Part shown: piece by piece, positions 6,253-57,851 of the stretch
How the letters are laid out: every line of letters begins with the position of its first letter
Numbering within the stretch: the first letter of the stretch is position 1
Origin: a virus
Strand: one strand, 5' to 3'
Length of the DNA: 64,000 bases
IMG/VR virus record: IMGVR_UViG_3300045988_137393
Program-made: the position numbers and the translations under genes
Notes under the pieces: model-generated
The model's input: the letters and a program-made list of their open reading frames with translations, nothing else
Database searches by the model: none
What the model was told of the DNA's origin: nothing

Positions 6253-6921
6253 ATGAACACATCATATAAAACAGCAATCAAATTCAAAGACTTATATATT
6301 CCTGTAAAAATGGTCAAAGTATCTCATAATAACTCAATAGAACTTAATCAGCTCTGCAAAGATTCAAAGGAAAGAGTACGTTATATCAAATTTTGCCCAT
6401 CATGCAATAAAGAAATTCACAATGAAGATATTGTGAAAGGATATAGATATGCAGAAGATAAGTATGTTATTTTGGAACAATATGATATAGAATCAATTAC
6501 ATCAAACCAAGATAGAACACTTTCAATAAAATATTTCTGTAAATCAAAGGAAATATCAGACATACTCATAGATAAATCATATTATTTAATTCCTGAAATG
6601 AATTCAGAAATCGAATATGAGCTTTTTCGCAAAGCTATGACTACGAATAGAGTAGTAGGTATTGCTGAAATTGTATTGGGTACAAAACAAGAATTAGTTG
6701 CGTTATTTGCCAATAAGAATTGTATTATTGCAACCATTTTATTTTATGAGAATGAGATTAACGAATTGCCGATTATCATGAAACACAAAATAGATAAACA
6801 ACAACTCGAAAATCTCAAACAAGATATTATAGATAATACAAAAGATTTTAATTGGAATTCACATTATGATAAATATCAACTCAAACTAAGAGAATTAATA
6901 TTTGAAAAAATTCCAAAATGA
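6253..6921 (+). CDS. ku: Ku-family DNA end-binding protein
   Basis: 222 aa; N-terminus YKTAIKFKDLYIPVKMVKV..ELNQLCKD..ERVRYIKFCPSCNKEI..EDIVKGYRY..DKYVIL follows the bacterial Ku (YkoV/Mt-Ku) core pattern; AAGGAG RBS. Confidence 0.8.
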   Translation: MNTSYKTAIKFKDLYIPVKMVKVSHNNSIELNQLCKDSKERVRYIKFCPSCNKEIHNEDIVKGYRYAEDKYVILEQYDIESITSNQDRTLSIKYFCKSKEISDILIDKSYYLIPEMNSEIEYELFRKAMTTNRVVGIAEIVLGTKQELVALFANKNCIIATILFYENEINELPIIMKHKIDKQQLENLKQDIIDNTKDFNWNSHYDKYQLKLRELIFEKIPK

Positions 6922-7690: not shown

Positions 7691-7980
7691 GAATTTGTCC
7701 CCTCGCTTTCGTTTGCAATTATTTGGTTATATGCGTCTTTGAAACTGATTACTAAATCCCTTAAAGTCTCTTTATCAATAGTACAGTCCAAATTGCTCAT
7801 ATCAATATTTGGATTTGATACCGTAAACTCCAATGTATTTCCATTTGGCGCAAATAAAACTTCCACAGATTCATTAAGCAGAAGAGTAATAGAATCAATT
7901 TTATTTCCATTATTCGATGTTACTCGTTTTACTTGCCCAACTTTTAATCTATCATTTTCAATAGATAATCTACTTGCCAT
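7687..7980 (-). CDS. hypothetical protein
   Basis: ORF-track ORF 7687..8088 trimmed to MASRL start (AAAGGAG RBS at 7990s); the longer version runs through tRNA-Met. Confidence 0.7.
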   Translation of the reverse strand: MASRLSIENDRLKVGQVKRVTSNNGNKIDSITLLLNESVEVLFAPNGNTLEFTVSNPNIDMSNLDCTIDKETLRDLVISFKDAYNQIIANESEGTNS

Positions 7981-8031
7981 TATATATACACTCCTTTCTT
8001 TTATTTTTAGTTTTCCTTTTAATCGTTGAGT

Positions 8032-8103
8032 TGCGGAAACAGGACTCGAACCTGCATTCTCTTGGTTATGAGCCAAGTGAGCTTCCATTGCTCGTCATTC
8101 CGC
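8032..8103 (-). tRNA. tRNA-Met/Ile2-type (CAU)
   Basis: Acceptor GCGGAA(T)/(T)TTCCGC, anticodon arm CTTGG-CTCATAA-CCAAG, T arm GCAGG-TTCGAGT-CCTGT; D stem is shifted by one nt relative to canonical numbering. Confidence 0.75.
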
Positions 8104-9026
8104 TATGATAATAGGAGAGGAGCGACCTCCCCATATTATATGTAGATTGGTAAGATCTACTGCCGATTGATTACCAGTCAACCGACAAAGAGAATATTGA
8201 AAATTCTCTGACATGTAATATTATCCAGTTGCAACGCCACATCGGAATTAAACCGAAATCTTCTCTGATATGAGACGCATGTTCAATCATGCTGATGACC
8301 TGGATAATATATTATTCTCCACATATTTTCAGTCTTCGGAGCAAAGACCTCTTGATAAGGTTTAATGACTCTTATCCGTCAATTAAGATTCTCATTAACG
8401 TAGAGAGGCACGAACATCTTCTCATTTCTGAAGGCTGAGATAAACCGATGATCCTAGATGTCGGTAGGAAAGAAATAGGACTTACAATACTACATGAATA
8501 ACAAATGCCAAGTTGATTTTTTCATATTTCAAATGAAACCGTGATGCTGTATCAACCCAATAACGGTTCACTATTTTGTGATTCTTATTGACTAACAGAA
8601 TCACTTTACCTACAACGATTAGAGGTGTTCCACACTTAACGGTGGTGGATTACCATATTTTTTAGTTGTCTACTAAGGCAAGATCTCTCCATAACACCGC
8701 CAATGAGCAGTAAGCAGTGGGAAGTTTTAGACCGTTCCAAAGTCAATAATTTCGCAAACCGACCTTTATATTTATGTCGCATATCGGTCAGCGACAGCTC
8801 ATTTGTAAAAGTCCGTCAACGGATTAACAGACCGCCCTCACTTCTTATGGATGTGAGCAGCTTTGTTATATTTTATTATTCTCTACATTGTCGTCACCTC
8901 TCGGCTCAAATATCACGTTGCTATGCTTTCTTGTTTAAATTAAATTGTTGATGTTGGACGAAAGCTTCATCGGTATCCTCAGTTTCTTCACGAATTATAT
9001 ACATCTGAATGGTTTCGGAAGGATTA
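8104..9026 (-). ncRNA. candidate large structured RNA (a), ~0.9 kb, 5' of tRNA-Met
   Basis: No minus-strand ORF >=60 aa; many perfect helices (8218-8228/8300-8310; 8189-8195/8203-8209; 8578-8585/8597-8604; 8537-8542/8563-8568); helix 8114-8120/8126-8132 is complete only on the minus strand (G.U). Confidence 0.45.
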
Positions 9027-9980
9027 TTAAATTTCAACACTATCTTTTAACTTTCTTACCTTAGAAGTGTCTATTTTAATGTAATATTTTTTTGTGACAT
9101 CCGTTCCAGAATGATTTAACATTGTAGACACATCTTCCAAGCTAACACCTTCATTTTTAAGCAAAGTGGCATAACTATGACGAAAATCATGAGGATGTAA
9201 TGTTGGAACGCCAATCATATTTCCGATCTTTTTACACCAGTCATTTAATGTACCACTTTGAATCGGCTTATTTTCATTGGTGTATGGAGTAATAAATATT
9301 CTTCCGTGGTCATCAATGTTATTATCTTTTCTGTATTGAATTAGTTTCTCAAGATACCCCTTAGTTTCTCTACTAAAACTTAACTCAACAATTTTCCCCT
9401 CTTTTTCAAGCACATTACTACAAATTCTTTCATCAAAATCTACTTGTTCCCATTTTAAACTGCCAATAGCAGTAACTCTTGCCATAGTAGTTAAAGAAAG
9501 AAAAGCATATGCCTGTAACTGAATATCTCCATATTCTTCAAGTTTTTCACGCATTAACTGCACTTGATCTTTTGTAAGATATGTTTGCACAGCGATAGGT
9601 TGACCATTTTTAGGTCTATCAATAAATTCAGTAGGAGATTCTACAATCAATTTTTTCTTACGAAGGAATTTGTAAAATGCAGAAACAGAAGACATAACTC
9701 TTTTTTGTCTTGCAACATTATTCCCTTGTTGTTTCCTCCAATAATAGTATTCTGTGATATCATCCTCTGTTGCTTCCAATACAGATAAATTAAACTGATT
9801 ATCATACATATAAATAAACCATTGTCTTAAATCTATATTGTACGCATTAATAGTATTAACTGATAAATCACGAATAGACATATCTACTTGATACTTTTGA
9901 AACAGTTTTAATGTTTCAGGATTTATATGTTCAAGTTTATCTTCATCATACATTACAATTCTTTTGCTTCGTTCTGCCAT
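9027..9980 (-). CDS. tyrosine recombinase/integrase (XerC/D-like)
   Basis: 317 aa; N-terminal SAM-like core-binding region, C-terminal HPHDFRHSYATLL ... LNHSGTDVTKKYY (H-x-x-R and catalytic Y); start moved to MAERS with GGAAG RBS. Confidence 0.85.
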   Translation of the reverse strand: MAERSKRIVMYDEDKLEHINPETLKLFQKYQVDMSIRDLSVNTINAYNIDLRQWFIYMYDNQFNLSVLEATEDDITEYYYWRKQQGNNVARQKRVMSSVSAFYKFLRKKKLIVESPTEFIDRPKNGQPIAVQTYLTKDQVQLMREKLEEYGDIQLQAYAFLSLTTMARVTAIGSLKWEQVDFDERICSNVLEKEGKIVELSFSRETKGYLEKLIQYRKDNNIDDHGRIFITPYTNENKPIQSGTLNDWCKKIGNMIGVPTLHPHDFRHSYATLLKNEGVSLEDVSTMLNHSGTDVTKKYYIKIDTSKVRKLKDSVEI

Positions 9981-10043
9981 TTTCTCACTTCCTTTCATAA
10001 CAAAAAGAAGCAGTAGTAGTAATAACTAAACTGCTTCATCAAA

Positions 10044-10922
10044 CTATTTTCCATTCTTCATCTGTATATTTTGTATATCTGATACTTTTCTTGGTAATTT
10101 ATATTTATCACACCATTTTCGTATTGTATTGTCTGTAACTTTATACATATCAGCAATATGAGTAAATGGTGTAGATCTTATTAATTTCTTTAAATTATCT
10201 CTTGAAATAATATTATACAATTTTTCTGTATTATATTTTTTGTAACAAATTTCACACATTGTTGATGTTGAATTCATTAAATTTGTTTTGCAATATGGAC
10301 AAAGAATTTTAATCGTTTTATTATTGCGTTTTGTTTTAGCATTCTCTCGTCTATACTTATGTAAGCAAGAAATACATAAGCCACTTTTATTATTTTTACT
10401 AATTTTTGTTCCACATTCTTTACATATCAATTTATTCTTTATTACTCTTTTATAGTTATATACACCAAAATTGTCCGTCATACTATGACAATTAGGACAT
10501 AATATTTGCAAATTTGATAATTCATTATTATCATGATCTCCGTCAATGTGGTGTAATTGCAGTTTAACAGGTTTTCCCATCCATTCAGATATATTACATA
10601 GTTCACATTTATTTTCTTTATATCCAAGTTCAATTAACTTATTTCTTAATTTATGACTTTGTACTTTAGTATTTCTATGTAATTTCGATTCAATATCATA
10701 TTCTGAACATAAAGATTTTTTCGCCATTTGTTGTTTATATACTTTTCTGTTTTCTTCAAATTTAGAAGTATTTAGTTTATATTCATTTATGATTCTTTTT
10801 AACGTATTTGTGCTACTTGATGAATTTATTCCTGCAGCTCTAAGAATTTCTGTGTATGTATTACTTGAATCGAGCAAGCTTTGTAATTGTTCAGGTGAAA
10901 AATTATATAATTTACTCGCCAT
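10044..10922 (-). CDS. HNH homing-type endonuclease with C-terminal HTH
   Basis: LQLHHIDGDHDNNELSNLQILCPNCH HNH motif, several CxxC pairs; start trimmed to MASKL (GGAGG RBS) because the longer ORF overlaps the tRNA-like gene. Confidence 0.85.
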   Translation of the reverse strand: MASKLYNFSPEQLQSLLDSSNTYTEILRAAGINSSSSTNTLKRIINEYKLNTSKFEENRKVYKQQMAKKSLCSEYDIESKLHRNTKVQSHKLRNKLIELGYKENKCELCNISEWMGKPVKLQLHHIDGDHDNNELSNLQILCPNCHSMTDNFGVYNYKRVIKNKLICKECGTKISKNNKSGLCISCLHKYRRENAKTKRNNKTIKILCPYCKTNLMNSTSTMCEICYKKYNTEKLYNIISRDNLKKLIRSTPFTHIADMYKVTDNTIRKWCDKYKLPRKVSDIQNIQMKNGK

Positions 10923-11008
10923 TATATTCCTCCAATCTATTAATTTATTGAAGGTAGAGATAAACTTTATGTTTATAATTCTCTTTATTAATCGAACAGA
11001 TTGACCTA

Positions 11009-11093
11009 GTCCTCCCACTTGGTAACGCTCCAAGCCGATCCGAAGACGACAGATTTACAGTCTGCCCCACATCTTTAGTGGTCTATGAGAGGA
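11009..11093 (-). tRNA. aberrant class-II tRNA-Tyr-like gene (GUA)
   Basis: 7-bp acceptor TCCTCTC/GGGAGGA, anticodon arm GCAGA-CTGTAAA-TCTGT, long variable arm with cUUCGg loop; but T loop AGCGTTA and D loop TAAAGAT lack TPsiC/GG elbow signatures and 3 extra nt precede the D stem. Confidence 0.4.
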
Positions 11094-11134
11094 TACAAAA
11101 AGAGTGTGCAGCATACACCACACACTCTAAATAT

Positions 11135-11809
11135 TTAAAAAATAAAATCAAGCAAATCAAATAATCTTCCAACCGAATTATATTCGTCAAAATCACTTAA
11201 ATCAATCGGCTTACTAGAATAAAATTCACGCTTTTCATATCCATTAACATCACTTTTAACAGAAGTAAATCCGTGAATTTTTCCGTTTTCATCTTTATCA
11301 AATGTAATATTTTTATGAGAATTATCACTTACGTCACTGCAACTGCAATTCTTACAATTACCATCACAATCATCGTCTACATCTTCAGCATCCTCACCAA
11401 TGTTGAATTCATGAATAATGCATCCAGAATCTTTATTGTCCTTGACAAAAGCTGAACTTACATCTCCATGAATAAATACAATGTCTGTCTCATCCATATT
11501 GATATAAGTATCACTTCCCTCATACTTGGTAGCCCGAACACATACATTCATTTCAGAATCAATACTAAGAATAAATGCATCATCATAACCGTCCAAATAA
11601 GGATCATTCAAATCGTTACAAGAAGCAAGTTTAAAATTCGTATTTTTAATAACAGAATTAAGAACATCTTTCATCACATCATACTTAGCCACAACTACAA
11701 TTTCTGAACAATCATCGTCATAATCTCTTGTACAAACATCCAGCTTGTCAAAAGTATCTGCTAAAAATTCAGCAAAATCATTTGTATCTGTAAAACCAAA
11801 TGTTTTCAA
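11135..11809 (-). CDS. hypothetical acidic, Cys-rich protein
   Basis: 224-aa ORF (TTG start, GGTGGTG RBS); DDDCDGNCKNCSCSD cluster; no family recognised. Confidence 0.65.
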   Translation of the reverse strand: MKTFGFTDTNDFAEFLADTFDKLDVCTRDYDDDCSEIVVVAKYDVMKDVLNSVIKNTNFKLASCNDLNDPYLDGYDDAFILSIDSEMNVCVRATKYEGSDTYINMDETDIVFIHGDVSSAFVKDNKDSGCIIHEFNIGEDAEDVDDDCDGNCKNCSCSDVSDNSHKNITFDKDENGKIHGFTSVKSDVNGYEKREFYSSKPIDLSDFDEYNSVGRLFDLLDFIF

Positions 11810-11830
11810 TATATTTTCACCACCTTAGAA

Positions 11831-12115
11831 TTAGAGCTGTTTTGCAGACTTTGACATCTTAAAGCAAATCTCATCATGCTGTGGAGTTACATATTCCTCA
11901 CCCTTGCGATCACCCATCATAATTTTTCCTCTACGCTCTGGAACTGTCTTAACCTTAAACTTTCCAAGTTTTCCAACTGCAACTGATTCTGCGTGATTTG
12001 CTGTTAATGTCTCTGTGATTACATCAGCAAAAGCATCAAGAATAACTGCGATGTCCTTCTGTGAAGCTCCCTCAACTTTATTTACTACTGCCTTTAATAC
12101 CTCGTTCTTTGTCAT
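11831..12115 (-). CDS. HU/IHF-family DNA-binding protein
   Basis: 94 aa from MTKNEV (AAAAGGAGAA RBS); ...DIAVILDAFADVITETL...GKLGKFKVKTVPERRGK... matches HU fold pattern incl. beta-arm R-x-G-x-N/K-P-like region. Confidence 0.8.
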   Translation of the reverse strand: MTKNEVLKAVVNKVEGASQKDIAVILDAFADVITETLTANHAESVAVGKLGKFKVKTVPERRGKIMMGDRKGEEYVTPQHDEICFKMSKSAKQL

Positions 12116-12153
12116 TTTAATTTTCTCCTTTTTTCTCAATTATTTATTTTTTT

Positions 12154-12196
12154 AATACAAAAAGAGGGTAGTGTTTCATTTGAGTACACTCCCTCC
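12154..12196 (-). terminator. rho-independent terminator
   Basis: Hairpin GAGGGTAGTGT / ACACTCCCTC (12164-12174 / 12187-12196) followed on minus strand by TTTTTG. Confidence 0.55.
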
Positions 12197-12321
12197 GATA
12201 CATACAATTGTGACAGCAACATCACAATTTCTATACAATCGGACTAATTAAAAGTAGAAAATTAGCCCAATTTTCATAGTTACTTATGCATAATATAAAA
12301 ACCAAGTCACTCGTACTTGGT

Positions 12322-13317
12322 CTACTTTGTCATGAAATTAGTAATAATTCTTGTCTTGGAATCAATAATGTCACCATTTGAATCCAATGCAAGATACATA
12401 AACCCGTTCTGATTTGGAATTATAAGTTTACCGTTGTTATAATCCAACTTATCCAAATCACACAAACAACCTTGCTCATACATTTTTATTCCACCTTGAG
12501 TAAAACTTCCTACTTTATGGGTATGAGCCATTACGATTCCAGTAAATGTGCGATCTACACGCAAGAAATAATTGACTGCCTTTTCTGTTGTTTTTAACAT
12601 ACCAGATGAATAATTTAATGTGTGACAGAAAATTACATTACCCTCTTTTATCCACCATTTTTTATCATAAACGATTTCAATATTTGAATCTTCAAACACT
12701 TCACGAATAGAAGAGTATTGTGTCTGGGTTTTATTTCTTTCATCATTAACTTTGAATCCATCGTCTACAATCATTTCTAGCGGATCTGTTGGAATGATGC
12801 CAAGTAATTCATTTGATAATCTATCAGAACAGTATCTTTGCATACGGTATTCATGATTTCCCATCACAAACATTACCTTTTTAGGTGTAGTCAGATTGAT
12901 TAAATCAATAATATACTGTCTTCCTAAAACAAGTTCTTCATCAAGATTTATTTTGAATTTTTTAGGAAATGCAGAACATGAAAAACAATCCAATAAATCA
13001 CCATTGACTATTAAAGTGTCTACAATTCCCTTATAACCTGAAAAAATATCAATAGGTAAATTAAACGGAATATGAACATCTGACACACATAAAATTCTTT
13101 CAGATGCACCCTCACAGTTGTGAATATAATTATCATACTCTTCATATCCAACAGCCTGTTTTCTAAGCTGATCTGGTGTAATGTTCAATCCAAGCATATC
13201 TCGAATTTCAATCCAATCCATATCTGTTTCCTTGCGCTTTTTCGCAAGACAACATCTCAATTTCCATTCAAAATCTGTTTCATTTTCTAATCTATGTAAG
13301 TCGATTATAATGTCCAC
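12322..13317 (-). CDS. calcineurin-like metallophosphoesterase
   Basis: 331 aa; motifs SDVHIPF, NGDLLD, GNHEY, FCHT, AHTHK in canonical order. Confidence 0.8.
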   Translation of the reverse strand: MDIIIDLHRLENETDFEWKLRCCLAKKRKETDMDWIEIRDMLGLNITPDQLRKQAVGYEEYDNYIHNCEGASERILCVSDVHIPFNLPIDIFSGYKGIVDTLIVNGDLLDCFSCSAFPKKFKINLDEELVLGRQYIIDLINLTTPKKVMFVMGNHEYRMQRYCSDRLSNELLGIIPTDPLEMIVDDGFKVNDERNKTQTQYSSIREVFEDSNIEIVYDKKWWIKEGNVIFCHTLNYSSGMLKTTEKAVNYFLRVDRTFTGIVMAHTHKVGSFTQGGIKMYEQGCLCDLDKLDYNNGKLIIPNQNGFMYLALDSNGDIIDSKTRIITNFMTK

Positions 13318-13327
13318 CTACTCTCTA

Positions 13328-13555
13328 TTACTCTTCATCAGACGGAACATCCAGCTCCTCATCTGTTTTTAATGCAACAGTAAAATCAATTACCTGATTC
13401 TTAAATGAAGTAAGCAGATCAGCTACCTTTACCTCCTGCTCCATATCATTCTCATCTGTGTATGTAATAGTAGTACAATCCTCTGAGAGTGTACCTGCCT
13501 TTACTGTTAATTTGTCTGTAGTTGTTCTTGTGAACTTTAATTTACTAGCTGCCAT
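13328..13555 (-). CDS. hypothetical protein
   Basis: 75-aa ORF with GGAGG RBS. Confidence 0.65.
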   Translation of the reverse strand: MAASKLKFTRTTTDKLTVKAGTLSEDCTTITYTDENDMEQEVKVADLLTSFKNQVIDFTVALKTDEELDVPSDEE

Positions 13556-13575
13556 TTTTCTTTTCCTCCATAAAA

Positions 13576-13887
13576 TTAAAAATTCCCACCAGAACGCTTT
13601 CTGCCAGGATTAAAATACATTTGTTTCGTTTTATTCTGTTTTACTTTGATATATTCACGAATATTTCTAATATAATTTTCATCATAACTCAAACGAATAT
13701 GTGATTCTAAATAATAACATCCACAACGAGTTGGAATTTTATTTGATAACACATTGTCTATAAGTCTATATGACGGATTAAGATTCGAGAGATGAGTATG
13801 CTTTTCTGTATCTTCTTGTCTACAGATACGATAGCCATTTTCAGTCTTGTCAATATAAAAACCTTTATATTCAATTCGATTTTTCAT
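13576..13887 (-). CDS. hypothetical protein
   Basis: ORF-track ORF, ATG at 13887 chosen over upstream TTG. Confidence 0.6.
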   Translation of the reverse strand: MKNRIEYKGFYIDKTENGYRICRQEDTEKHTHLSNLNPSYRLIDNVLSNKIPTRCGCYYLESHIRLSYDENYIRNIREYIKVKQNKTKQMYFNPGRKRSGGNF

Positions 13888-13896
13888 AGGCAAAAC

Positions 13897-14061
13897 CTAC
13901 TTAACATACTTATCTTCGATGTAACGCTTTCCACCACAAGTCTTGTAATATCCAATATGTTCGCCTCTGCGATCTACATATCCTCGTCTTGTGTTTCTAA
14001 TTATACCTTCGAATAATAATTTTTCAATTTCATTTTTTGAAATGTACTTAATAATTTTCAC
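13897..14061 (-). CDS. possible small protein (54 aa, GTG start)
   Basis: Open frame VKIIKYISKNEIEKLL...GGKRYIEDKYVK between two genes; weak RBS, below ORF-track cutoff. Confidence 0.3.
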   Translation of the reverse strand: MKIIKYISKNEIEKLLFEGIIRNTRRGYVDRRGEHIGYYKTCGGKRYIEDKYVK

Positions 14062-14099
14062 TTCTTTCTTGATTTATTTCCTACAAAGTAGGATAGTAG

Positions 14100-14174
14100 T
14101 TGGAAATGTAGGATTTGAACCCACGACCTCCTGAACCCAAATCAGGCGTTCTAACCAAACTGAACTAATTCCCA
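14100..14174 (-). tRNA. tRNA-Pro (UGG), U1:A72, second copy
   Basis: Acceptor TGGGAAT/ATTTCCA, D arm TAGTTCAGTTTGGTTAGAAC, anticodon arm CCTGA-TTTGGGT-TCAGG, T arm GTGGG-TTCAAAT-CCTAC. Confidence 0.8.
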
Positions 14175-15008
14175 AAATAAAAAATCCCATACCGAAGTAT
14201 GAGATCCTTACTTAATATGAGCTGAGATATTTGACTCAATACACTAACACTTACTGTGGTTGGACACAGTTTATCACACAAGCGATTAGCTTGTAGTTAG
14301 CAACAACACCGATTTTGACATAATCGGCAAACTCTTACCACAAAGTATTATAGATTTTCTTTCTGCACATTCTTCCTTGCGAGATTCATAGGTTGCAGCC
14401 TATTAGAGTTGCACGTACTTGTACTTTCTCATATAACACCTTGCGAGTGCTATATGTCACCATATTACAGGTGAATAAGTTGTTTTTCTCTTTGCGGTCG
14501 CACACACTTTTGCTGTTTTGTAATTTTCTTTTAAATATTATTTACCTAAAATAATTTGATTTCTTTCAAAAGTATGTACTTATTATGGACGATGAGGTGT
14601 ACATTTGATCATCCGTACCTTTTGAGTACAGCCCAATCATCACCATCCTGCTCGGATTGCGATCTCCTTACTTTTTGATTCCATCCCTGTTTTTCAACTT
14701 AAGAGATATTACCAAAATCCTACCAGCGGTTATACTTGCGGTATTCCCACCAATAGTACACAAATCATACCCACATTTCTGTGTTACTACAGTGCCTATT
14801 TCAAGACACCCACCAATCAACCATATTCGCCAACAGTTGTCCTTGAATAGAAGGTTGGGCGTAGATTTTATGTGTTTTCCGTTAAACTGTATTTCACAGT
14901 CGCAGCCTTATAATACGATAAGAACCACTTTATACATGTCGCCATGCTTATTTTTGAGATTTAACATCTCCTGATCCGAAACCAACCAGTCCTACAAAAG
15001 TAGAAAAG
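14175..15008 (-). ncRNA. candidate large structured RNA (b), ~0.83 kb between tRNA-Asn and tRNA-Pro
   Basis: No minus-strand ORF >=60 aa; local hairpins (e.g. CCGATT..AATCGG 14319-14337); CCTTGCGAG (minus: CUC-GCAA-GG, GNRA-type) at 14375 and 14439. Confidence 0.4.
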
Positions 15009-15081
15009 CTCTCCCAGTAAGACTCGAACTTACGACTTTCGCATTAACAGTGCGATGCTCTACCAGCTGAGCTATAAGAGA
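15009..15081 (-). tRNA. tRNA-Asn (GUU)
   Basis: Canonical: acceptor TCTCTTA/TGGGAGA, TAGCTCAGCTGGTAGAGC D arm, anticodon loop CTGTTAA, T loop TTCGAGT. Confidence 0.85.
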
Positions 15082-15756
15082 TTAAGAATTGTCAGTGACC
15101 ATACCACAGGAACTGTAGCACAGCCACCGATCTATAAGAAGAGGAGTACAATATGAATATGTACCAATCTTAGAAATGAACTTTAGAATTGTTCAGAACC
15201 GCCAATGAATTAGTAGCGATGGAATCTCTTAGATTTTATCAGTTCCCCAAATAAGCTGATTATCCGTAGGTTTACCAACCTAACATTAAAATTAGCATTT
15301 ATGGCTGCTTGCACCACATACATTGTCTCTATGGACTTTATTGCCTCAGTATGATACGAGATCTAAATCACTGTTCTGAATTTAATTTGTGTTATATTGT
15401 GTCCGTATAGAACGTTGTTCTAATGTCTTTCGACAATTATATATTCTCTGTTTTATCAGCCAAGAAAAGCTGATTTCATTGTGTTAGCCTTTCGGCACAG
15501 CCCTCAATCAAGAGGGCTTTTATTTTGTAGTAAAACACGTGTTGCATACTTTTATTCCGCATTTGCATATAAGCGGAGAGGATAGTTATGTTGGTATTGT
15601 ACGAAGTACACGCAAATTTACACTGTTATACATTGATAAAGCTTCATTGCCCACTTTCTCCTCATAAGTTCACTTAACTACAATCGTTGAAACCGTTGAT
15701 TTTACTAGCTTTTAGCAACACTAAAGCAATTAAGTCTGTACAAAAACTGTGCATTT
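15082..15756 (-). ncRNA. candidate large structured RNA (c), ~0.67 kb between RNAP-like gene and tRNA-Asn
   Basis: ORF-free; GCC-GAAA-GGC hairpin (minus) next to GCCCTC..GAGGGC stem (15508-15527); shares a ~50-nt module starting CCGCCAATGA (15199) with segment (a) (8697). Confidence 0.4.
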
Positions 15757-18366
15757 TTAACAGTTTTTTGAAAAACATTTTAGCAAATTTGATGAATTTA
15801 TACTGTATAATACCTTCATTAACAATGATTTATTTTTATTAAGGACAGAAGATATTGATTTTTGATTTCGAATTGAACCAGGAAGAATTTTAAAACAACG
15901 ATCAATCATCCAAGAAAACAACCCAAGATAATTCTTAGATATTTTAATTGATTTCACTTCATAAATCATGTCATCAAAATCTTTTCTAAGCAATAAATAA
16001 TCATCATTCTCTGCATCATCGTTTATTTCATATAATTTTAATGAATATTTTGCTATAATTTCCTCAACCTTTCTACAAGTACGAATATTACTTTTCATTT
16101 CATATTTAACAAAAAAATGACTCATTGGCAGAGTTGTATCTGTATTATGAAACTTCATTAAATCCAAATCGTATAAGTAATTCATAGGACATTTTAAACT
16201 TTCGTTTATGTATTTTTCATTAAAACCTCTTTTGATTATTTTCCAAAACGAAGGATAAAGATTTGTTTTAATATCCATATCATCTTTTATTCTTTTGATT
16301 TCACCAGTTAAGTCGATGTCGAATCTTCTCTTTGCGTTATCAATAGCGACTTGAGCCAAAACACTTAATATACATACATAGTCAACATACTTTTGGTCAT
16401 CAAAATTACATGCATATGTTTGAGCTATTTGAGCTAAGTTGCTTGATTCGCCAATATCCAACTGAGATTTTGCTAAATTATTGTCAATTCCAGCATAATC
16501 GTCCATTGATTTACCATATATATTTTTCTCTTTTGGAATGTTATTTTTGATGGTAGGATAATTTTGATAGCATTTTCTCGCATGTTCTACAATATCACAT
16601 TGATTTGTTGTATACCCACTATCGGAATCTTGATCACTTCCATTGTTTCTATCCTGAAAATCTGTACCATTCATATTTACTGCAACGCACTGTTTTCCAA
16701 GGTTAAAATATTTTTCAAGATTTTTATGGTATATATTGTGAAGATATGTAAGATTGTTTTTACTATTAAAAGGACTTCTAAAGAAAGCTAGATATTCACC
16801 ACTATTAAATCTTTCAGTGTAACATTGAATTGTATTGCTTTCAGCAAAAAATGTGTCATCATTATCAACGTCAGACTCATTTCCTGTGGCAGCATATAAA
16901 AGCATTGCATATGGAGATCCAACTATTACTAAATTTTCAGCATTTTGAATAATACGTCCACTTTTCATATTTAACACATATCCTTTAATAATAGCTTTTT
17001 TTCTGTCACGAAAATATGAACTCCTTACAAAATCTGGATTTTGATTACACAAAGCAATTAAAACTTCGTAATCATTTGAAAAGTTTTTATTCTTCTCAAG
17101 ATATTTCAAAAACTCAGAATTGTCTTGTTTGAGTTTATTGATATACTCAACACTTTCCTTTACAACATTTGGCATTATTTTTTCATCAAGAGAGTTTACC
17201 ATTTGGTAGCTCATTCTCTGAACTTCTCCAAGTTTACTTTCATGTGCAGTTTTCACAATACCAAACATACAGCCGTTTTCATAAACTCGATCACACCAAT
17301 ATTCATACGACTTATCAAATTTCAACCATTTCATAGCATTGTCAGTTGTGATCAATTCAATATCCTTAACAAAATGTTCTACTCCAAACATATCTTTTAC
17401 AGTAGCAGAATAGTAATTCTCTCCAAAATAGTCTTTGAAAAATTGCTGGATATTTGTGCTAAAAGCTGCCATTTTACAAAAATGATGTCGTAATAATATA
17501 TATCCATTTCCCCAACTTGGGAAGATACTAGAATCAATTAACGCCTGTCCGTCAAACATCGTGTTCTTCAACTCGTAATTATCAATGTGTTTTGCATAGC
17601 AATGTTTGTTTTCATCTGTCTCAATACTAACTACTTTAGTAAAAAATGATCTATCCACATCTTTTAATATTAAAATATTCTTGGGATTAATTTTGACTTT
17701 ACCAACGACGGCACTGGATATGAGAGGAGCATAAGCACTAATTTCGACTGTAGGAGAATTCCTTTTAGGAAGTCGAATGCCCATATACAAAAATTTAATT
17801 GCTTTTTTATAAAGGCGATCACATATAAACATACACGAGCCTTTTTTTGCTTTTCCTGTACTTCTGTAAAGCATTTTGTAATGAATAGTTTCTCGTTTTA
17901 TGATATCACCGTTTTTCTTTCTGGTAATATATTCAACATTTACACCTTCATTATAAAACAATGTTCTTATTTCTTCTTTTGTGTGTTTGTGATATTTGTC
18001 TTTGTTCTTATTTGCTTCCTGAAATAATTGTGAAAGTTTTTTACGTTTGTTCCTTTTCTTTTGAATCTGACTATTATAGCCATATGATTTTGCAAGCTTA
18101 TATTCAGTTCTCGCATCTCTTGCGACTTTTTGTAAATGTGAAATCTCTTCATCGTAAGAACGAGAACCAAAATTAAATTCCAAACAAATTAAATCTCGTG
18201 TAGATTCTTCTTTCCATACCTTTAATCCATTTTCATTTAAAAAGTCACTAAAAAGGCTATTGGTAAACATCGCATCTTTATACTCATAATGATCTCTGAC
18301 ACCATTATTATACTCATAAAGGGTGCTTGCTTCAATATTCTTTATTTTAATTCCATATTCACTCAT
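15757..18366 (-). CDS. YonO/RdRP-like single-subunit two-barrel RNA polymerase (candidate)
   Basis: 869 aa; LYRSTGKAKKGSCMF and FFRSPFNSKNN...(30 aa)...NGSDQDSDSG resemble the basic-loop and R-x-P...DxDxD metal-site signatures of YonO/cellular RdRP family; size and nearby HU gene recall SPbeta yonN-yonO. Confidence 0.55.
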   Translation of the reverse strand: MSEYGIKIKNIEASTLYEYNNGVRDHYEYKDAMFTNSLFSDFLNENGLKVWKEESTRDLICLEFNFGSRSYDEEISHLQKVARDARTEYKLAKSYGYNSQIQKKRNKRKKLSQLFQEANKNKDKYHKHTKEEIRTLFYNEGVNVEYITRKKNGDIIKRETIHYKMLYRSTGKAKKGSCMFICDRLYKKAIKFLYMGIRLPKRNSPTVEISAYAPLISSAVVGKVKINPKNILILKDVDRSFFTKVVSIETDENKHCYAKHIDNYELKNTMFDGQALIDSSIFPSWGNGYILLRHHFCKMAAFSTNIQQFFKDYFGENYYSATVKDMFGVEHFVKDIELITTDNAMKWLKFDKSYEYWCDRVYENGCMFGIVKTAHESKLGEVQRMSYQMVNSLDEKIMPNVVKESVEYINKLKQDNSEFLKYLEKNKNFSNDYEVLIALCNQNPDFVRSSYFRDRKKAIIKGYVLNMKSGRIIQNAENLVIVGSPYAMLLYAATGNESDVDNDDTFFAESNTIQCYTERFNSGEYLAFFRSPFNSKNNLTYLHNIYHKNLEKYFNLGKQCVAVNMNGTDFQDRNNGSDQDSDSGYTTNQCDIVEHARKCYQNYPTIKNNIPKEKNIYGKSMDDYAGIDNNLAKSQLDIGESSNLAQIAQTYACNFDDQKYVDYVCILSVLAQVAIDNAKRRFDIDLTGEIKRIKDDMDIKTNLYPSFWKIIKRGFNEKYINESLKCPMNYLYDLDLMKFHNTDTTLPMSHFFVKYEMKSNIRTCRKVEEIIAKYSLKLYEINDDAENDDYLLLRKDFDDMIYEVKSIKISKNYLGLFSWMIDRCFKILPGSIRNQKSISSVLNKNKSLLMKVLYSINSSNLLKCFSKNC

Positions 18367-18590: not shown

Positions 18591-18634
18591 ATAAATTTAC
18601 CTCCACTTATATATTCTCCAAATGAAATTTCTAT

Positions 18635-20688: not shown

Positions 20689-20719
20689 TAAAAATTCCTC
20701 CTTTATAGGTGATATTTAT

Positions 20720-20739
20720 TTATTCTCCATCTGAAATTA
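20720..20739. repeat. 20-nt direct repeat copy 1 (TTATTCTCCATCTGAAATTA)
   Basis: Exact match to 21011-21030. Confidence 0.9.
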
Positions 20740-23906: not shown

Positions 23907-23994
23907 AGTCGCATTGAGCAGGCTCAGTCTACGCTTTTTTAAGCGGTTGTGAATTAAGCACATTTGAGAAGTGGTTCGATTCCACTTGCGACTT
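23907..23994 (+). ncRNA. tRNA-like element 1 (acceptor + canonical T arm, no 7-nt anticodon loop)
   Basis: Acceptor AGTCGCA/TGCGACT, T arm AGTGG-TTCGATT-CCACT, long extra arm TGTG..CACA; the anticodon-position hairpin CGCTT-TTTT-AAGCG has a 4-nt loop; D arm truncated. Confidence 0.5.
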
Positions 23995-57833: not shown

Positions 57834-57851
57834 AATGGAAGGAGAATATAT

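Follow-up and report, generated by a model that had tools for sequence, protein, structure and literature searches.

A pseudoknotted phage RNA family frequently located beside viral tRNA genes

The DNA under investigation, referred to as the window, is a stretch of 64,000 nucleotides from a gut phage. It contains two related structured RNA domains on its minus strand, hereafter designated the a and c units. Both are members of a phage RNA family that is new to Rfam 15, that is distributed in a cassette-like manner, and that is positioned beside tRNAs. The family fold contains a pseudoknot, and the c domain is a diverged paralogue of the a domain. Relevant features are provided in Table 1. The tRNA islands of phages hold a number of enigmatic RNAs, including GOLLD, ROOL, drum, and skipping-rope, the functions of which constitute a long-standing question. 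To these the new family adds a compact and easily made member of 110-190 nt whose pseudoknot is supported by covariation, and thus its function is directly testable. The family may shed light on the expression or protection of the tRNA arsenals of phages.

Table 1. Features of the a and c units and their surroundings in the window
Feature	Position	Strand	Details
a unit	8686-8812	-	~110-nt domain in segment a; core 8695-8804
a-unit promoter-like motif, GAGAATAATAAA	8872-8883	-	GTGACG-16-TAAAAT, 9/12 match
GOLLD RNA match	14219-14648	-	segment b, between tRNA-Asn and tRNA-Pro, same array
tRNA-Asn (GUU)	15008-15081	-	ARAGORN and Rfam; first tRNA downstream of the c unit
Leader with two hairpins (15145-15165 and 15093-15129)	15093-15165	-	MFE; between the c unit and tRNA-Asn
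c unit	15188-15381	-	~190-nt pseudoknotted RNA domain; module 15199-15248 is its 3′ part
P0 5′ strand, UUCAGAAC	15373-15380	-	pairs with GUUCUGAA, 15192-15199; R2 alignment
P1 5′ strand, CAGUGAUUUAG	15363-15373	-	pairs with CUAAUUCAUUG, 15203-15213, in the loop of the terminal hairpin; hand model, reproduced by R2
P2 hairpin, UCUC-loop-GAGG	15344-15361	-	assigned by hand; homologous to family P2
Pend	15198-15220	-	AUCGC 15216-15220, loop UACUAAUUCAUUG, GCGGU 15198-15202; bears the CGCUACU...GCGG signature
Promoter-like motif, GAGAATATATAA (the TTATTCTCT motif of the initial annotation)	15437-15448	-	sigma-70-like
3′ flank of the 869-aa gene	15418-15756	-	kept in relatives; hairpins 15499-15518, 15487-15496, 15455-15474, and CCGC-loop-GCGG 15557-15576

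Segment c (15082-15756) had been described in an initial annotation as free of open reading frames, and this proved correct. Between the 869-aa ORF at 15757-18366 and tRNA-Asn, both on the minus strand, there is no ORF of 60 aa or longer, and the only ones overlapping the segment are chance ORFs of 25-51 aa. The segment is a composite of four parts which are, along the minus strand, the 3′ flank of the RNAP-like gene, the GAGAATAWWWAW motif, the ~190-nt RNA domain, and a two-hairpin leader followed by tRNA-Asn. By blastn, positions 1-339 of the 3′ flank are matched in relatives at ~95% protein identity and positions 176-339 in those at 66-68%. The two minus-strand hairpins previously noted exist, with the GAGGGC/GCCCTC stem at 15499-15518 and the GCC-GAAA-GGC hairpin at 15487-15496 rather than at 15508-15527. 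The hairpins at 15499-15518 and 15455-15474 are terminator-like on the plus strand only. A weak third covariance-model match, at 15546-15625 (E=0.42; orthologues E ~0.02) was not counted as a family member, given that distant relatives keep the terminal hairpin only. Genes for an integrase and an HNH endonuclease lie next to segment a, in which an 82-aa plus-strand ORF (8703-8951) that starts inside the module was ruled out by 1-nt indels between close relatives. The plus-strand ACCGCCA was rejected as the 3′ end of a tRNA because there is no T-arm upstream.

The similarity between segments a and c had been noticed by eye as a shared module of ~50 nt. The module sequences lie where they had been placed, at 15199-15248 in c and 8697-8738 in a, and the module is real. 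It is not, however, a unit of its own, but rather makes up the last third, on the 3′ side, of a pseudoknotted domain that measures 110 nt in a and 190 nt in c. When the two segments are aligned pairwise, the result is no better than for shuffled sequences, an outcome that the initial annotation had foreseen as speaking against its proposal. Smith-Waterman alignments of a and c with five scoring schemes and in both orientations never exceeded the dinucleotide shuffles, and the module never formed the best path. An exact 11-mer, TCATTGGCGGT on the minus strand, occurs at 8696-8706 and 15198-15208 only in the 64 kb; a shared word of at least 11 nt between a and c is found in 22% of the shuffles (P=0.22). 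A repeat search over positions 1-26000 did not report the module. The relationship between a and c is significant only once relatives and structure are included. As can be seen from this example, a by-eye similarity that fails pairwise statistics can still flag a genuine RNA family.

Further copies, the absence of which from relatives had also been named as counting against the proposal, were found in many phages. A search of IMG/VR with the module pattern returned 79 stretches, ~73 of them genuine, which fall into two orthologue groups, the a-type and the c-type. The a unit is represented in IMG/VR by 60 copies (32 unique) and the c unit, in phages, by 21 nearly invariant copies (12 unique); on several contigs the two types occur together, separated by 7-9 kb. 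Types e-i were recovered in relatives with nhmmer, and a second pattern yielded 83 additional stretches, which comprise the GC-richer types j-p on phage contigs of 25-200 kb. One architecture is common to no fewer than seven sequence types from the related phage loci collected first, and several types found later have it as well. Throughout the family ~25 nucleotides are near-invariant, in ACAG(U/A)GAG, CGCUACU, and GCGG. Each genome carries several diverged paralogues, and units are gained and lost as cassettes between near-identical phages.

The membership of both units was confirmed with covariance models. With E-values that are rough owing to a short calibration, model R1, which contained no a- or c-type sequence, returned the a unit as the top match in the window (25.4 bits, E=5e-4) and the c unit as the second-ranked match in the 128 kb searched (20.8 bits, E=0.0065), and model R2, which contained no c-type sequence, returned the c unit at 34.3 bits (E=2.3e-7; filters off, both strands of the window). 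Model R2 also reproduced the P0 and P1 helices that had been predicted by hand for the c unit.

The overall architecture of the domain consists, in order, of helix P0, which clamps both ends, an ACA junction, helix P1, the P2 hairpin, a variable A-rich middle, and the terminal hairpin Pend (CGCUACU...GCGG). The loop of Pend provides the 3′ strand of the long-range helix P1, and a pseudoknot results. The 3′ signature is formed by the Pend 5′ strand, (Y/R)(U/C)(G/C)GC, followed by UACU, the P1 3′ strand, and GCGG(Y). Both a and c display this signature, and in both the (A)G(U/A)GAG... near the 5′ end pairs with the loop of the terminal hairpin. The strands of P0 are separated from P1 by 2-3 nt on the 5′ side and from Pend by 0-1 nt on the 3′ side. 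This helix is found in c as well as types f, k, m, n, o, and p; the a unit of the window has a weak P0 or none, and in some types it is short or absent. In the a unit, P1 is formed by AAUGAGC/GCUCAUU and Pend by CACUGC-UUACUGCUCAUUG-GCGGUG. In the c unit, P0 contains seven contiguous pairs (p=0.002 versus shuffles) and 10 of the 11 positions of P1 are paired; a permutation test of P1 gave a Fisher p=4e-6.

Support for this fold is provided by two alignments. In the first of these, A1 (types e-i), 88.9% of the positions are paired as compared to 29-48% in slid controls. In the second, A2, which contains 31 distinct rows and had been fitted to the model for P1 and P2, 93.8% of the cells are paired versus 29-57% in slid controls, and the covariation score is 0.344 versus 0.10 or less. 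There are many compensatory changes among the 31 sequences. P2 is 100% paired and each of its four pairs is doubly changed, P1 is 89.9% paired with compensatory changes, and Pend is 95.5% paired even though it lies outside of the covariance model, its outer pair being GC in 20 cases and AU in 8. P0 is formed by several pair types and covaries between sequence types. The strand is fixed by the G-U pairs observed in P1 and Pend. Two inner pseudoknots, PK1 and PK2, are suggestive by eye and not significant (p=0.13 and 0.08, respectively). The nested-only folding energies of the cores are unremarkable, with z values of -0.3 to -2.

These data bear on whether the resemblance of a and c is due to chance or to an element acting at the level of DNA, such as a recombination or att site or the end of a mobile element, rather than to an RNA. 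Such an explanation would be in keeping with the pairwise alignment that is not significant, with the integrase and HNH endonuclease genes that adjoin segment a, and with the module lying at the edge of a mosaic block in both segments. The edges of the blocks, however, fall where the folded domain ends (the P0 3′ strand), as is predicted for the exchange of an RNA as a whole cassette. Both units were found by covariance models built without the sequences tested, and the family alignments show compensatory changes and strand-specific G-U pairs. In 596 Gb of bacterial and archaeal genomes the module pattern gave 49 matches, all of which are due to chance and none of which contains the GCU(U)ACU core of the family. 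A chance or DNA-level origin is thus considered highly improbable. The same scan of 596 Gb of cellular genomes afforded no host or prophage assignment.

The family matches nothing that has been catalogued in the collections searched. No family of Rfam 15 matches any of the units, either within positions 7900-16000 of the window at an E limit of 10 or in the related loci at a limit of 1, and a scan of the whole window at gathering thresholds returned tRNAs only. In the E-limited scan of the window the one match of note was to GOLLD, in segment b. When the segments and eight family types were searched by blastn against 50,697 GenBank phage records, the only matches were to tRNAs and genes, or there were none. 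With respect to the literature on tRNA-leader RNAs in phages, only the work on theta ribozymes was found.

Motifs of the TTATTCTCT type are present in both segments as annotated, at 15441-15449 in c and 8876-8884 in a. They correspond to a promoter-like element, GAGAATAWWWAW, which from its sequence may serve as a promoter. In segment c, TTGGCT (15458-15463) lies 16 nt upstream of TATAAT, a 10/12 match to sigma-70. The GAGAATAWWWAW element occurs six times in the window versus an expectation of 1.06, an approximately sixfold excess that was reached in none of 100 shuffles. All six sites are co-oriented with genes, and two are located just upstream of a ribosome-binding site and start codon (18607 and 20716). 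The motif also precedes units of the a, i, and e types in relatives. The total number of sigma-70-like sites, defined by -35/-10 hexamers with a spacing of 16-18 nt, equals that expected from shuffles; the conserved part is GAGAATAWWWAW, and no conserved -35 was seen across the units. The initial annotation had regarded a and c as paralogous transcription units with a shared architecture. Each segment does contain a paralogous minus-strand RNA element with a promoter-like motif before it and a tRNA after it. The segments as wholes are not paralogous, each being a mosaic whose cassettes are missing from close relatives or replaced there by others, and the transcription units are putative.

In relatives, the leader found here between the c unit and tRNA-Asn is conserved as a block ahead of various tRNAs (Asn, Met, Lys), and in two loci, L042 and L025, it directly follows the promoter-like motif with no c unit. 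Further along the same array, the GOLLD match (Rfam RF02032) scores 104.5 bits (E=2.7e-27), which is below the gathering score of 150, and segment b is conserved in relatives over its full 833 nt. No match to the GOLLD model was found in 15082-15756 or 8105-9026 at E values up to 10. The c unit is missing from relatives that keep GOLLD (L025, for example) and is therefore not part of it.

In the phage group of the window the units head their tRNA arrays, and in two other loci (L328 and L319) they lie inside arrays, between tRNAs. A tRNA begins exactly 12-13 nt after the GCGG of the domain in 11 unique contexts that involve four tRNA isotypes. The corresponding distances in the window are 110 nt for c and ~590 nt for a, not 12-13 nt. 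The link to tRNAs is frequent but not obligatory, since some members are found between head genes or beside a drum-like RNA. Examples with no nearby tRNA are provided by type j, located between minor-head and scaffold genes (L276), and type l, which follows a drum-like RNA (L288).

A possible mode of action can be sketched from this arrangement. The domain would be co-transcribed with the tRNA/GOLLD array of the phage from the upstream promoter-like motif, and its 3′ end would be set by the RNase P cut at the 5′ end of the next tRNA, which in many phages is positioned 12-13 nt downstream across a predicted 6-nt AU-rich single-stranded linker. The freed RNA, knotted and presumably nuclease-resistant, would then work independently on some protein or RNA partner, and the domain would not be a riboswitch of the downstream gene. 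Across the types examined no consistent downstream expression platform was seen. That the family is a stable RNA co-transcribed with tRNAs, released by RNase P, and acting in its own right is a proposal for which we judge the chances to be evenly balanced; the promoter, the co-transcription, and the RNase P release are all inferred. The heavy conservation and knotted fold of the domain would be compatible with a ribozyme or an aptamer as well.

The fixed spacing of 12-13 nt to the tRNA 5′ end could also be that of a new self-cleaving or processing ribozyme which cuts the adjacent polycistronic tRNA or mRNA and is thus a 5′-side counterpart of the HDV-like theta ribozymes. The domain is compact and pseudoknotted with ~25 near-invariant nucleotides, it resides at intergenic sites in phages in the same orientation as the genes, and ribozymes coupled to phage tRNAs have been described before (PMC10879173). 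Against this, no ribozyme family in Rfam was matched, the topology is not HDV-like, the 5′ ends of tRNAs are already made by RNase P, and the units of the window lie 110-590 nt from a tRNA. In addition, the similar orphan phage motifs FuFi-1, skipping-rope, and DUF3800-I have been tested without self-cleavage being observed (PMC5737381). A ribozyme is accordingly regarded as unlikely. Resemblances to the hammerhead, twister, and SRP-like RNAs that were seen by eye are unsupported by Rfam.

The location of the units also suggests a cis-regulatory leader, either a riboswitch or attenuator, or an RNA for processive antitermination of the put/EAR kind that would allow RNA polymerase to proceed through the hairpin-rich, untranslated tRNA/GOLLD array. 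In the phage group of the window the units are promoter-proximal and head the arrays, with no same-strand tRNA upstream within the loci examined, and the putative transcription units of a and c have a single unit each. Moreover, a terminator-like hairpin with a U-run is found inside the array just before tRNA-Pro (14209-14180), and a hairpin with a pyrimidine-rich tail follows the c unit (15145-15165). What lies downstream, however, is wholly different from type to type (a tRNA at 12-13 nt, another family member, a ribosome-binding site, or a scaffold gene), without a conserved expression platform, and P0 closes the domain upon itself. The promoter-like motif and leader persist without the unit in L042 and L025, and the units of L328 and L319 lie within arrays rather than at their heads. 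No riboswitch or T-box of Rfam was matched by the units in positions 7900-16000 of the window or in the related loci. We consider a cis-regulatory role improbable.

By our own comparison, P0 stacked on the 5-bp Pend might mimic the acceptor/T-arm minihelix of a tRNA. The domain would then be a decoy for enzymes that act on tRNAs, or a substrate of theirs, with RNase P, the CCA-adding enzyme, and anticodon nucleases as examples. The 3′ strands of Pend, with the five base pairs of a T-stem, and of P0 are contiguous, as are those of a T-stem and an acceptor stem, and a short ACA junction follows the P0 5′ strand. The domain resides in tRNA arrays, and its cassette-like distribution is reminiscent of an arms race. 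Neither ARAGORN nor the Rfam models for tRNA (RF00005) and tmRNA detect it, however. Its loop is 12-13 nt in length and base-paired to P1, as opposed to the 7-nt T-loop, there is neither a discriminator nor a CCA, and P0 is short or absent in some types. This tRNA-like interpretation is viewed as very doubtful.

In broader terms, the pseudoknot-locked fold, the ~25 near-invariant nucleotides, and the exact distance of 12-13 nt at which a tRNA begins in many gut phages hint at a dedicated biochemical role. The family may thus be a previously undescribed, widespread class of phage RNA that helps viral tRNAs to mature, protects them, or takes part in their use, for example as a new class of ribozyme at tRNA 5′ leaders or as a knotted decoy against tRNA-targeting host defences. 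This suggestion is a tentative one, somewhat less probable than not.

Of the known RNAs, the theta ribozymes are HDV-like RNAs of gut phages whose cleavage site is located no more than ~5 nt from a tRNA 3′ end (Kienbeck et al. 2024, PMC10879173). Like the new family, they are small, pseudoknotted, and located a fixed short distance from viral tRNAs, and the ...AUGGCG... of the family resembles by eye the J4/2 region of HDV. The theta ribozymes are found 3′ of the tRNA, though, whereas the family members are 5′ of it, and an HDV/theta assignment of ...AUGGCG... was rejected on the basis of topology and position relative to the tRNA. The helix order of the family, as derived from covariation, cannot be mapped onto the HDV-like nested double pseudoknot (P1, P2, P3, L3, P3′, P1′, P1.1, P4, J4/2 with the catalytic C, and P2′). 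Indeed, no local P4 precedes UGGCGG, and the strand before it pairs with the 5′ end of the domain. No HDV-like family in Rfam was matched by the units.

Both tmRNA and the tobamovirus domain upstream of the tRNA-like structure are rich in pseudoknots and have paired 5′ and 3′ ends. The likeness to the new family, which serves as a lead only, lies in the clamped ends, the pseudoknots with A-rich linkers, and the location beside tRNAs or tRNA-like elements. Unlike these RNAs, the family has no tag ORF, T-loop, or CCA, and no tmRNA was called by ARAGORN. Phages and prophages also encode GOLLD and ROOL, in many cases close to tRNA islands (PMC12286853, PMC5737381). They are RNAs of 580-800 nt that form multimeric cages, whereas the members of the new family are 110-190 nt in length and similar to neither model.

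Parallels are also offered by the drum, skipping-rope, FuFi-1, and DUF3800-associated motifs, which are orphan structured RNAs of phages and prophages (Weinberg et al. 2017, PMC5737381). The ORFs of the window that were scanned include no DUF3800 protein, and there is no match in sequence or structure between these RNAs and the family by cmscan (E limit of 10 for positions 7900-16000 of the window and 1 for the related loci). They are, like the new family, small (~65-175 nt), highly conserved, intricate, without an assigned function, and rarely located in clear 5′ UTRs. They also share its ncRNA/tRNA islands: FuFi-1 is found in L154, drum-like RNAs in L288 and L336 (directly adjacent), skipping-rope in L283, and DUF3800-VIII in L336. 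The orphan RNAs usually end in a Rho-independent terminator, whereas the members of the new family end in a closing helix, often with a tRNA 12-13 nt beyond it.

Segment c, the non-coding stretch at 15082-15756, belongs to an untranslated array whose minus-strand order is the gene for the 869-aa RNAP-like protein (15757-18366), segment c, tRNA-Asn, segment b, and tRNA-Pro. It contains no open reading frame of at least 60 aa; those of 25-51 aa are scattered over both strands. The ~50-nt module that the initial annotation had aligned by eye between segments a and c, and the TTATTCTCT motif in each, are located at the positions assigned to them. The exact minus-strand word TCATTGGCGGT occurs in the window at the two modules and nowhere else. 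The hairpins described for segment c are likewise present, albeit at other positions, with the GC stem at 15499-15518 and GCC-GAAA-GGC at 15487-15496. Under none of five scoring schemes did local alignment of segment a against segment c exceed dinucleotide shuffles or pick out the module, and a shared word of at least 11 nt arises in 22% of shuffles. The pairwise similarity is statistically indistinguishable from chance, and by that comparison alone the proposed kinship would be dismissed.

Further copies of the module are found in relatives. A search of IMG/VR with the module-derived pattern TCTAA-N3-5-TTCC-N11-14-TCATTGRCGG returned 79 stretches. Of these, ~73 are genuine and form two clearly separate orthologue groups, one for each of the RNA domains of the two segments: 60 copies (32 unique) belong with the a unit and 21 (12 unique) with the c unit. 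Several contigs carry both types. In 596 Gb of cellular genomes the pattern gave 49 matches, none genuine. A profile of the 3' module led to five more sequence types (e-i) in related loci, and a second pattern, TCGCUACURCUC-N4-GCGG, added 83 stretches; among these are types j-p, richer in GC, from phage contigs 25-50 kb or 80-200 kb long. All types have a common layout, namely closing helix P0, an ACA junction (CCA in some types), the 5' strand of P1, (A)G(U/A)GAG..., a P2 hairpin, a variable A-rich middle, UAAAAC, and a terminal 5-bp hairpin, Pend (CGCUACU...GCGG). The 3' strand of P1 sits in the Pend loop, and that of P0 directly continues the 3' strand of Pend. The module corresponds to the UAAAAC-to-GCGG part. 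Two loci, L336 and L154, hold two members each in direct tandem. Segments a and c each contain one diverged copy of this new candidate RNA family.

Covariance model R1, built from types e-i alone, was run against both strands of the window with filters off. The a unit scored best (25.4 bits, E=5e-4, at 8686-8812), followed by the c unit (20.8 bits, E=0.0065, at 15188-15333). Model R2, built from an alignment (A2) with no c-type sequence, matched the c unit over 15188-15381 with 34.3 bits and E=2.3e-7, the next non-family match having E=0.11; the E-values of both models are rough. R2 also reproduced the hand-drawn P0 (UUCAGAAC/GUUCUGAA) and P1 (CAGUGAUUUAG/CUAAUUCAUUG) of the c unit. With these models the paralogy of RNA domains a and c is taken as established, but it does not extend to the whole segments, both of which are mosaic. 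The original observation is partly confirmed, and its interpretation as paralogous transcription units is partly supported.

The next match of R1 in the window, at 15546-15625 (minus strand), is weak (E=0.42; orthologues such as L006:6724-6822, ~0.02). Its CCGC-UUAUAUGCAAAU-GCGG hairpin is similar to Pend, and its AUUUGC/GCAAAU pairing to P1. Distant relatives keep the hairpin alone, followed by the palindrome AACACGTGTT or AACGATCGTT. The site could be a minimal or degenerate family member or an operator-like site.

The fold was assessed in two alignments. In A1 (MAFFT; nine sequences, types e-i only), 88.9% of cells are paired versus 29-48% in slid controls, with a covariation score of 0.33 versus 0.13 at most. 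In A2 (31 distinct sequences fitted to R1), the corresponding values are 93.8% versus 29-57% and 0.344 versus 0.10 at most, where the fit was to the model for P1 and P2 and many rows are related. In A2 every P2 cell is paired (100%), and each of the four pairs shows double changes. Pend, which lies outside the structure of the model and thus provides an independent check, is 95.5% paired, its outer pair being G-C in 20 sequences and A-U in eight. P0 varies in length, and each of its positions has several pair types (Fisher p=3.6e-6). For P1, permutation with one representative per type gave p=4e-6; the inner pseudoknots drawn by eye, PK1 and PK2, were not significant in permutation. Nested-only folding energies do not stand out, as is to be expected when an RNA is pseudoknotted. 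G-U pairs, common in both P1 and Pend, assign the RNA to the strand of the tRNAs, in the window the minus strand.

Segment a is as modular as segment c. Of segment c, phages with a ~95%-identical 869-aa protein showed only nucleotides 1-339 (counted along the minus strand), and blastn matched the module-bearing stretch in none of the 74 loci surrounding the gene for this protein. The tRNA leader comes immediately after the promoter-like motif in L042 and L025, and in L001, L058, and L022 the c-unit site is taken by a different, "d-type" cassette of ~190 nt, which shares with c only short words (GCAAGC.AGCC, CCUACGG) and was not picked up by R1. Outside its RNA domain, segment c consists of conserved sequence flanking the RNAP-like gene on its 3' side, the promoter-like motif, and the leader of the tRNA. 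Within that flank, the hairpins at 15499-15518 and 15455-15474 look like intrinsic terminators on the plus strand only, with a T-run after the stem; read on the minus strand, which is the transcribed one, they come after an A-run. The neighbourhood holds no gene on the plus strand.

From the a unit to tRNA-Met (8105-8690, minus strand) there are further mosaic non-coding blocks. Positions 512-716 of segment a (minus-strand numbering) are 92-94% identical in L125, L126, L140, and L141, and the stretch terminates with the hairpin GGGGAGGUCGCUCCUCUCC (8114-8132) directly before the tRNA. Since these blocks have no Rfam match, they may be more RNA cassettes of an undescribed kind.

Features of the window and of related IMG/VR loci (L numbers)
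Feature	Location	Strand	Remarks
Segment a	8105-9026	-	between integrase gene (9027-9998) and tRNA-Met
tRNA-Pro	14099-14174	-	after segment b
GOLLD match (RF02032)	14219-14648	-	Rfam, 104.5 bits, E=2.7e-27, under gathering score 150; in segment b
tRNA-Asn	15008-15081	-	between segments c and b
Ku-like / HU-like / HNH genes	6253-6921, 11831-12139, 10044-11033	+, -, -	
d-type structured cassette	L001:6951-7199, L058:6906-7077, L022		c-unit site; ends ...GGCGUUUUCAAACAGA
FuFi-1	L154:1746-1915	-	64.5 bits
Drum-like	L288:3881-3978, L336	+, -	38-39.5 bits, just under gathering score
DUF3800-VIII	L336	-	54.3 bits
Drum-like and DUF3800-VIII, L336	1709-1805 and 1838-1904	-, -	
Skipping-rope	L283:5509-5588	-	78.8 bits

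The window is part of a large, low-GC phage genome (~33% GC); related IMG/VR contigs measure ~80-210 kb, many of them from human-associated samples. The minus strand carries most of the genes at 1-20.7 kb. Among deposited sequences, the 869-aa protein has its nearest relatives in Enterocloster and Clostridium phages; a distant homologue, in Enterocloster phage PMBT24, bears the annotation RNA-dependent RNA polymerase. Pfam gave no match to the 869-aa protein, and its PHROG match, 8308, is annotated as of unknown function. In some relatives the gene carries insertions, the match spanning ~3.8 kb in L034, L035, and L054. The phage also encodes a Ku-like protein (Pfam Ku, E=3.5e-37), an HU-like DNA-binding protein, and an HNH endonuclease adjoining the integrase. 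All 833 nt of segment b (14175-15007), flanked by tRNA-Asn and tRNA-Pro, are 73-86% conserved in many relatives, and a terminator-like hairpin with a U-run occupies 14209-14180, directly before tRNA-Pro. At 23907-23994 (plus strand) ARAGORN calls a tRNA-like gene of 88 nt whose anticodon, "tt", is abnormal in having two bases; Rfam makes no tRNA call there at its gathering threshold.

Upstream of both RNA units lies GAGAATAWWWAW, which occurs six times in the window versus 1.06 expected, always co-oriented with genes. Two of the six sites (18607-18618 and 20716-20727, minus strand) directly precede the ribosome-binding site and start codon of protein genes, one such gene being the small ORF before the RNAP-like gene; others are at 57842 and 63162 (plus strand). 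TTATTCTCT is the complement of GAGAATA. In relatives the motif is likewise found upstream of units of types a, e, and i, and in the i type the P1 strand begins 12-17 nt after the G of GAGAATA. It is promoter-like, and its user could be the host polymerase or the RNAP-like protein of the phage. From its sequence a sigma-70-like reading is possible; no conserved -35 element was seen at the motif, and sigma-70-like matches are no commoner than in shuffles. GAGAATAWWWAW may be a promoter element specific to the phage.

In this phage group the units head tRNA arrays, with no same-strand tRNA upstream within the loci examined. In 11 unique contexts, covering several sequence types and four isotypes (Gln, Thr, Gly, and Asn), the tRNA 5' end follows GCGG by exactly 12-13 nt (L272, L280, L281, L283, L285, L304, L312, L319, and others), a gap formed by the P0 3' strand and an AU-rich linker of ~6 nt. 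Members in L328, L283, and L280 lie within long tRNA arrays. That in L276 is positioned between the minor-head and scaffold genes, as is that in L285, where tRNA-Gln is still attached.

Through P0 the domain forms a closed unit, the sequence downstream is not conserved between types, and close relatives lack the domain; these three points favour a self-contained RNA over a riboswitch. Most likely, such an RNA would be co-transcribed with the tRNAs, released by an RNase P cut at the following tRNA, and persist as a knotted, nuclease-resistant small RNA acting with some partner. Alternatively, the domain could be a new ribozyme, a leader for antitermination or attenuation, or a tRNA-like decoy. 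The gain, loss, and swapping of units between near-identical phages resemble those of accessory or counter-defence cargo.

Searches with cmscan against 4227 Rfam 15 families (E limit of 10 on 7900-16000 of the window and 1 on 14 related loci) gave no match to the family units, nor did blastn of eight family types against 50,697 deposited phage genomes. No description of the family was found in the searchable literature, although one elsewhere is possible. An HDV-like theta ribozyme was ruled out, the helix order being different; theta ribozymes, moreover, lie at the opposite end of the tRNA from the family (PMC10879173). The Rfam RNAs in family neighbourhoods are skipping-rope, drum-like, DUF3800-VIII, FuFi-1, and GOLLD, and the first four lie within a few hundred nt of members, which suggests shared ncRNA islands. 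The L288 member, for example, adjoins a drum-like RNA; the non-coding island that holds them is 850 nt long and is preceded by a strong TTGACA-17-TATAAT promoter. The family is a member of none of the GOLLD, ROOL, drum, skipping-rope, FuFi-1, or DUF3800 motifs, but it works like, and co-resides with, these orphan RNAs of phage tRNA islands (PMC5737381, PMC12286853).
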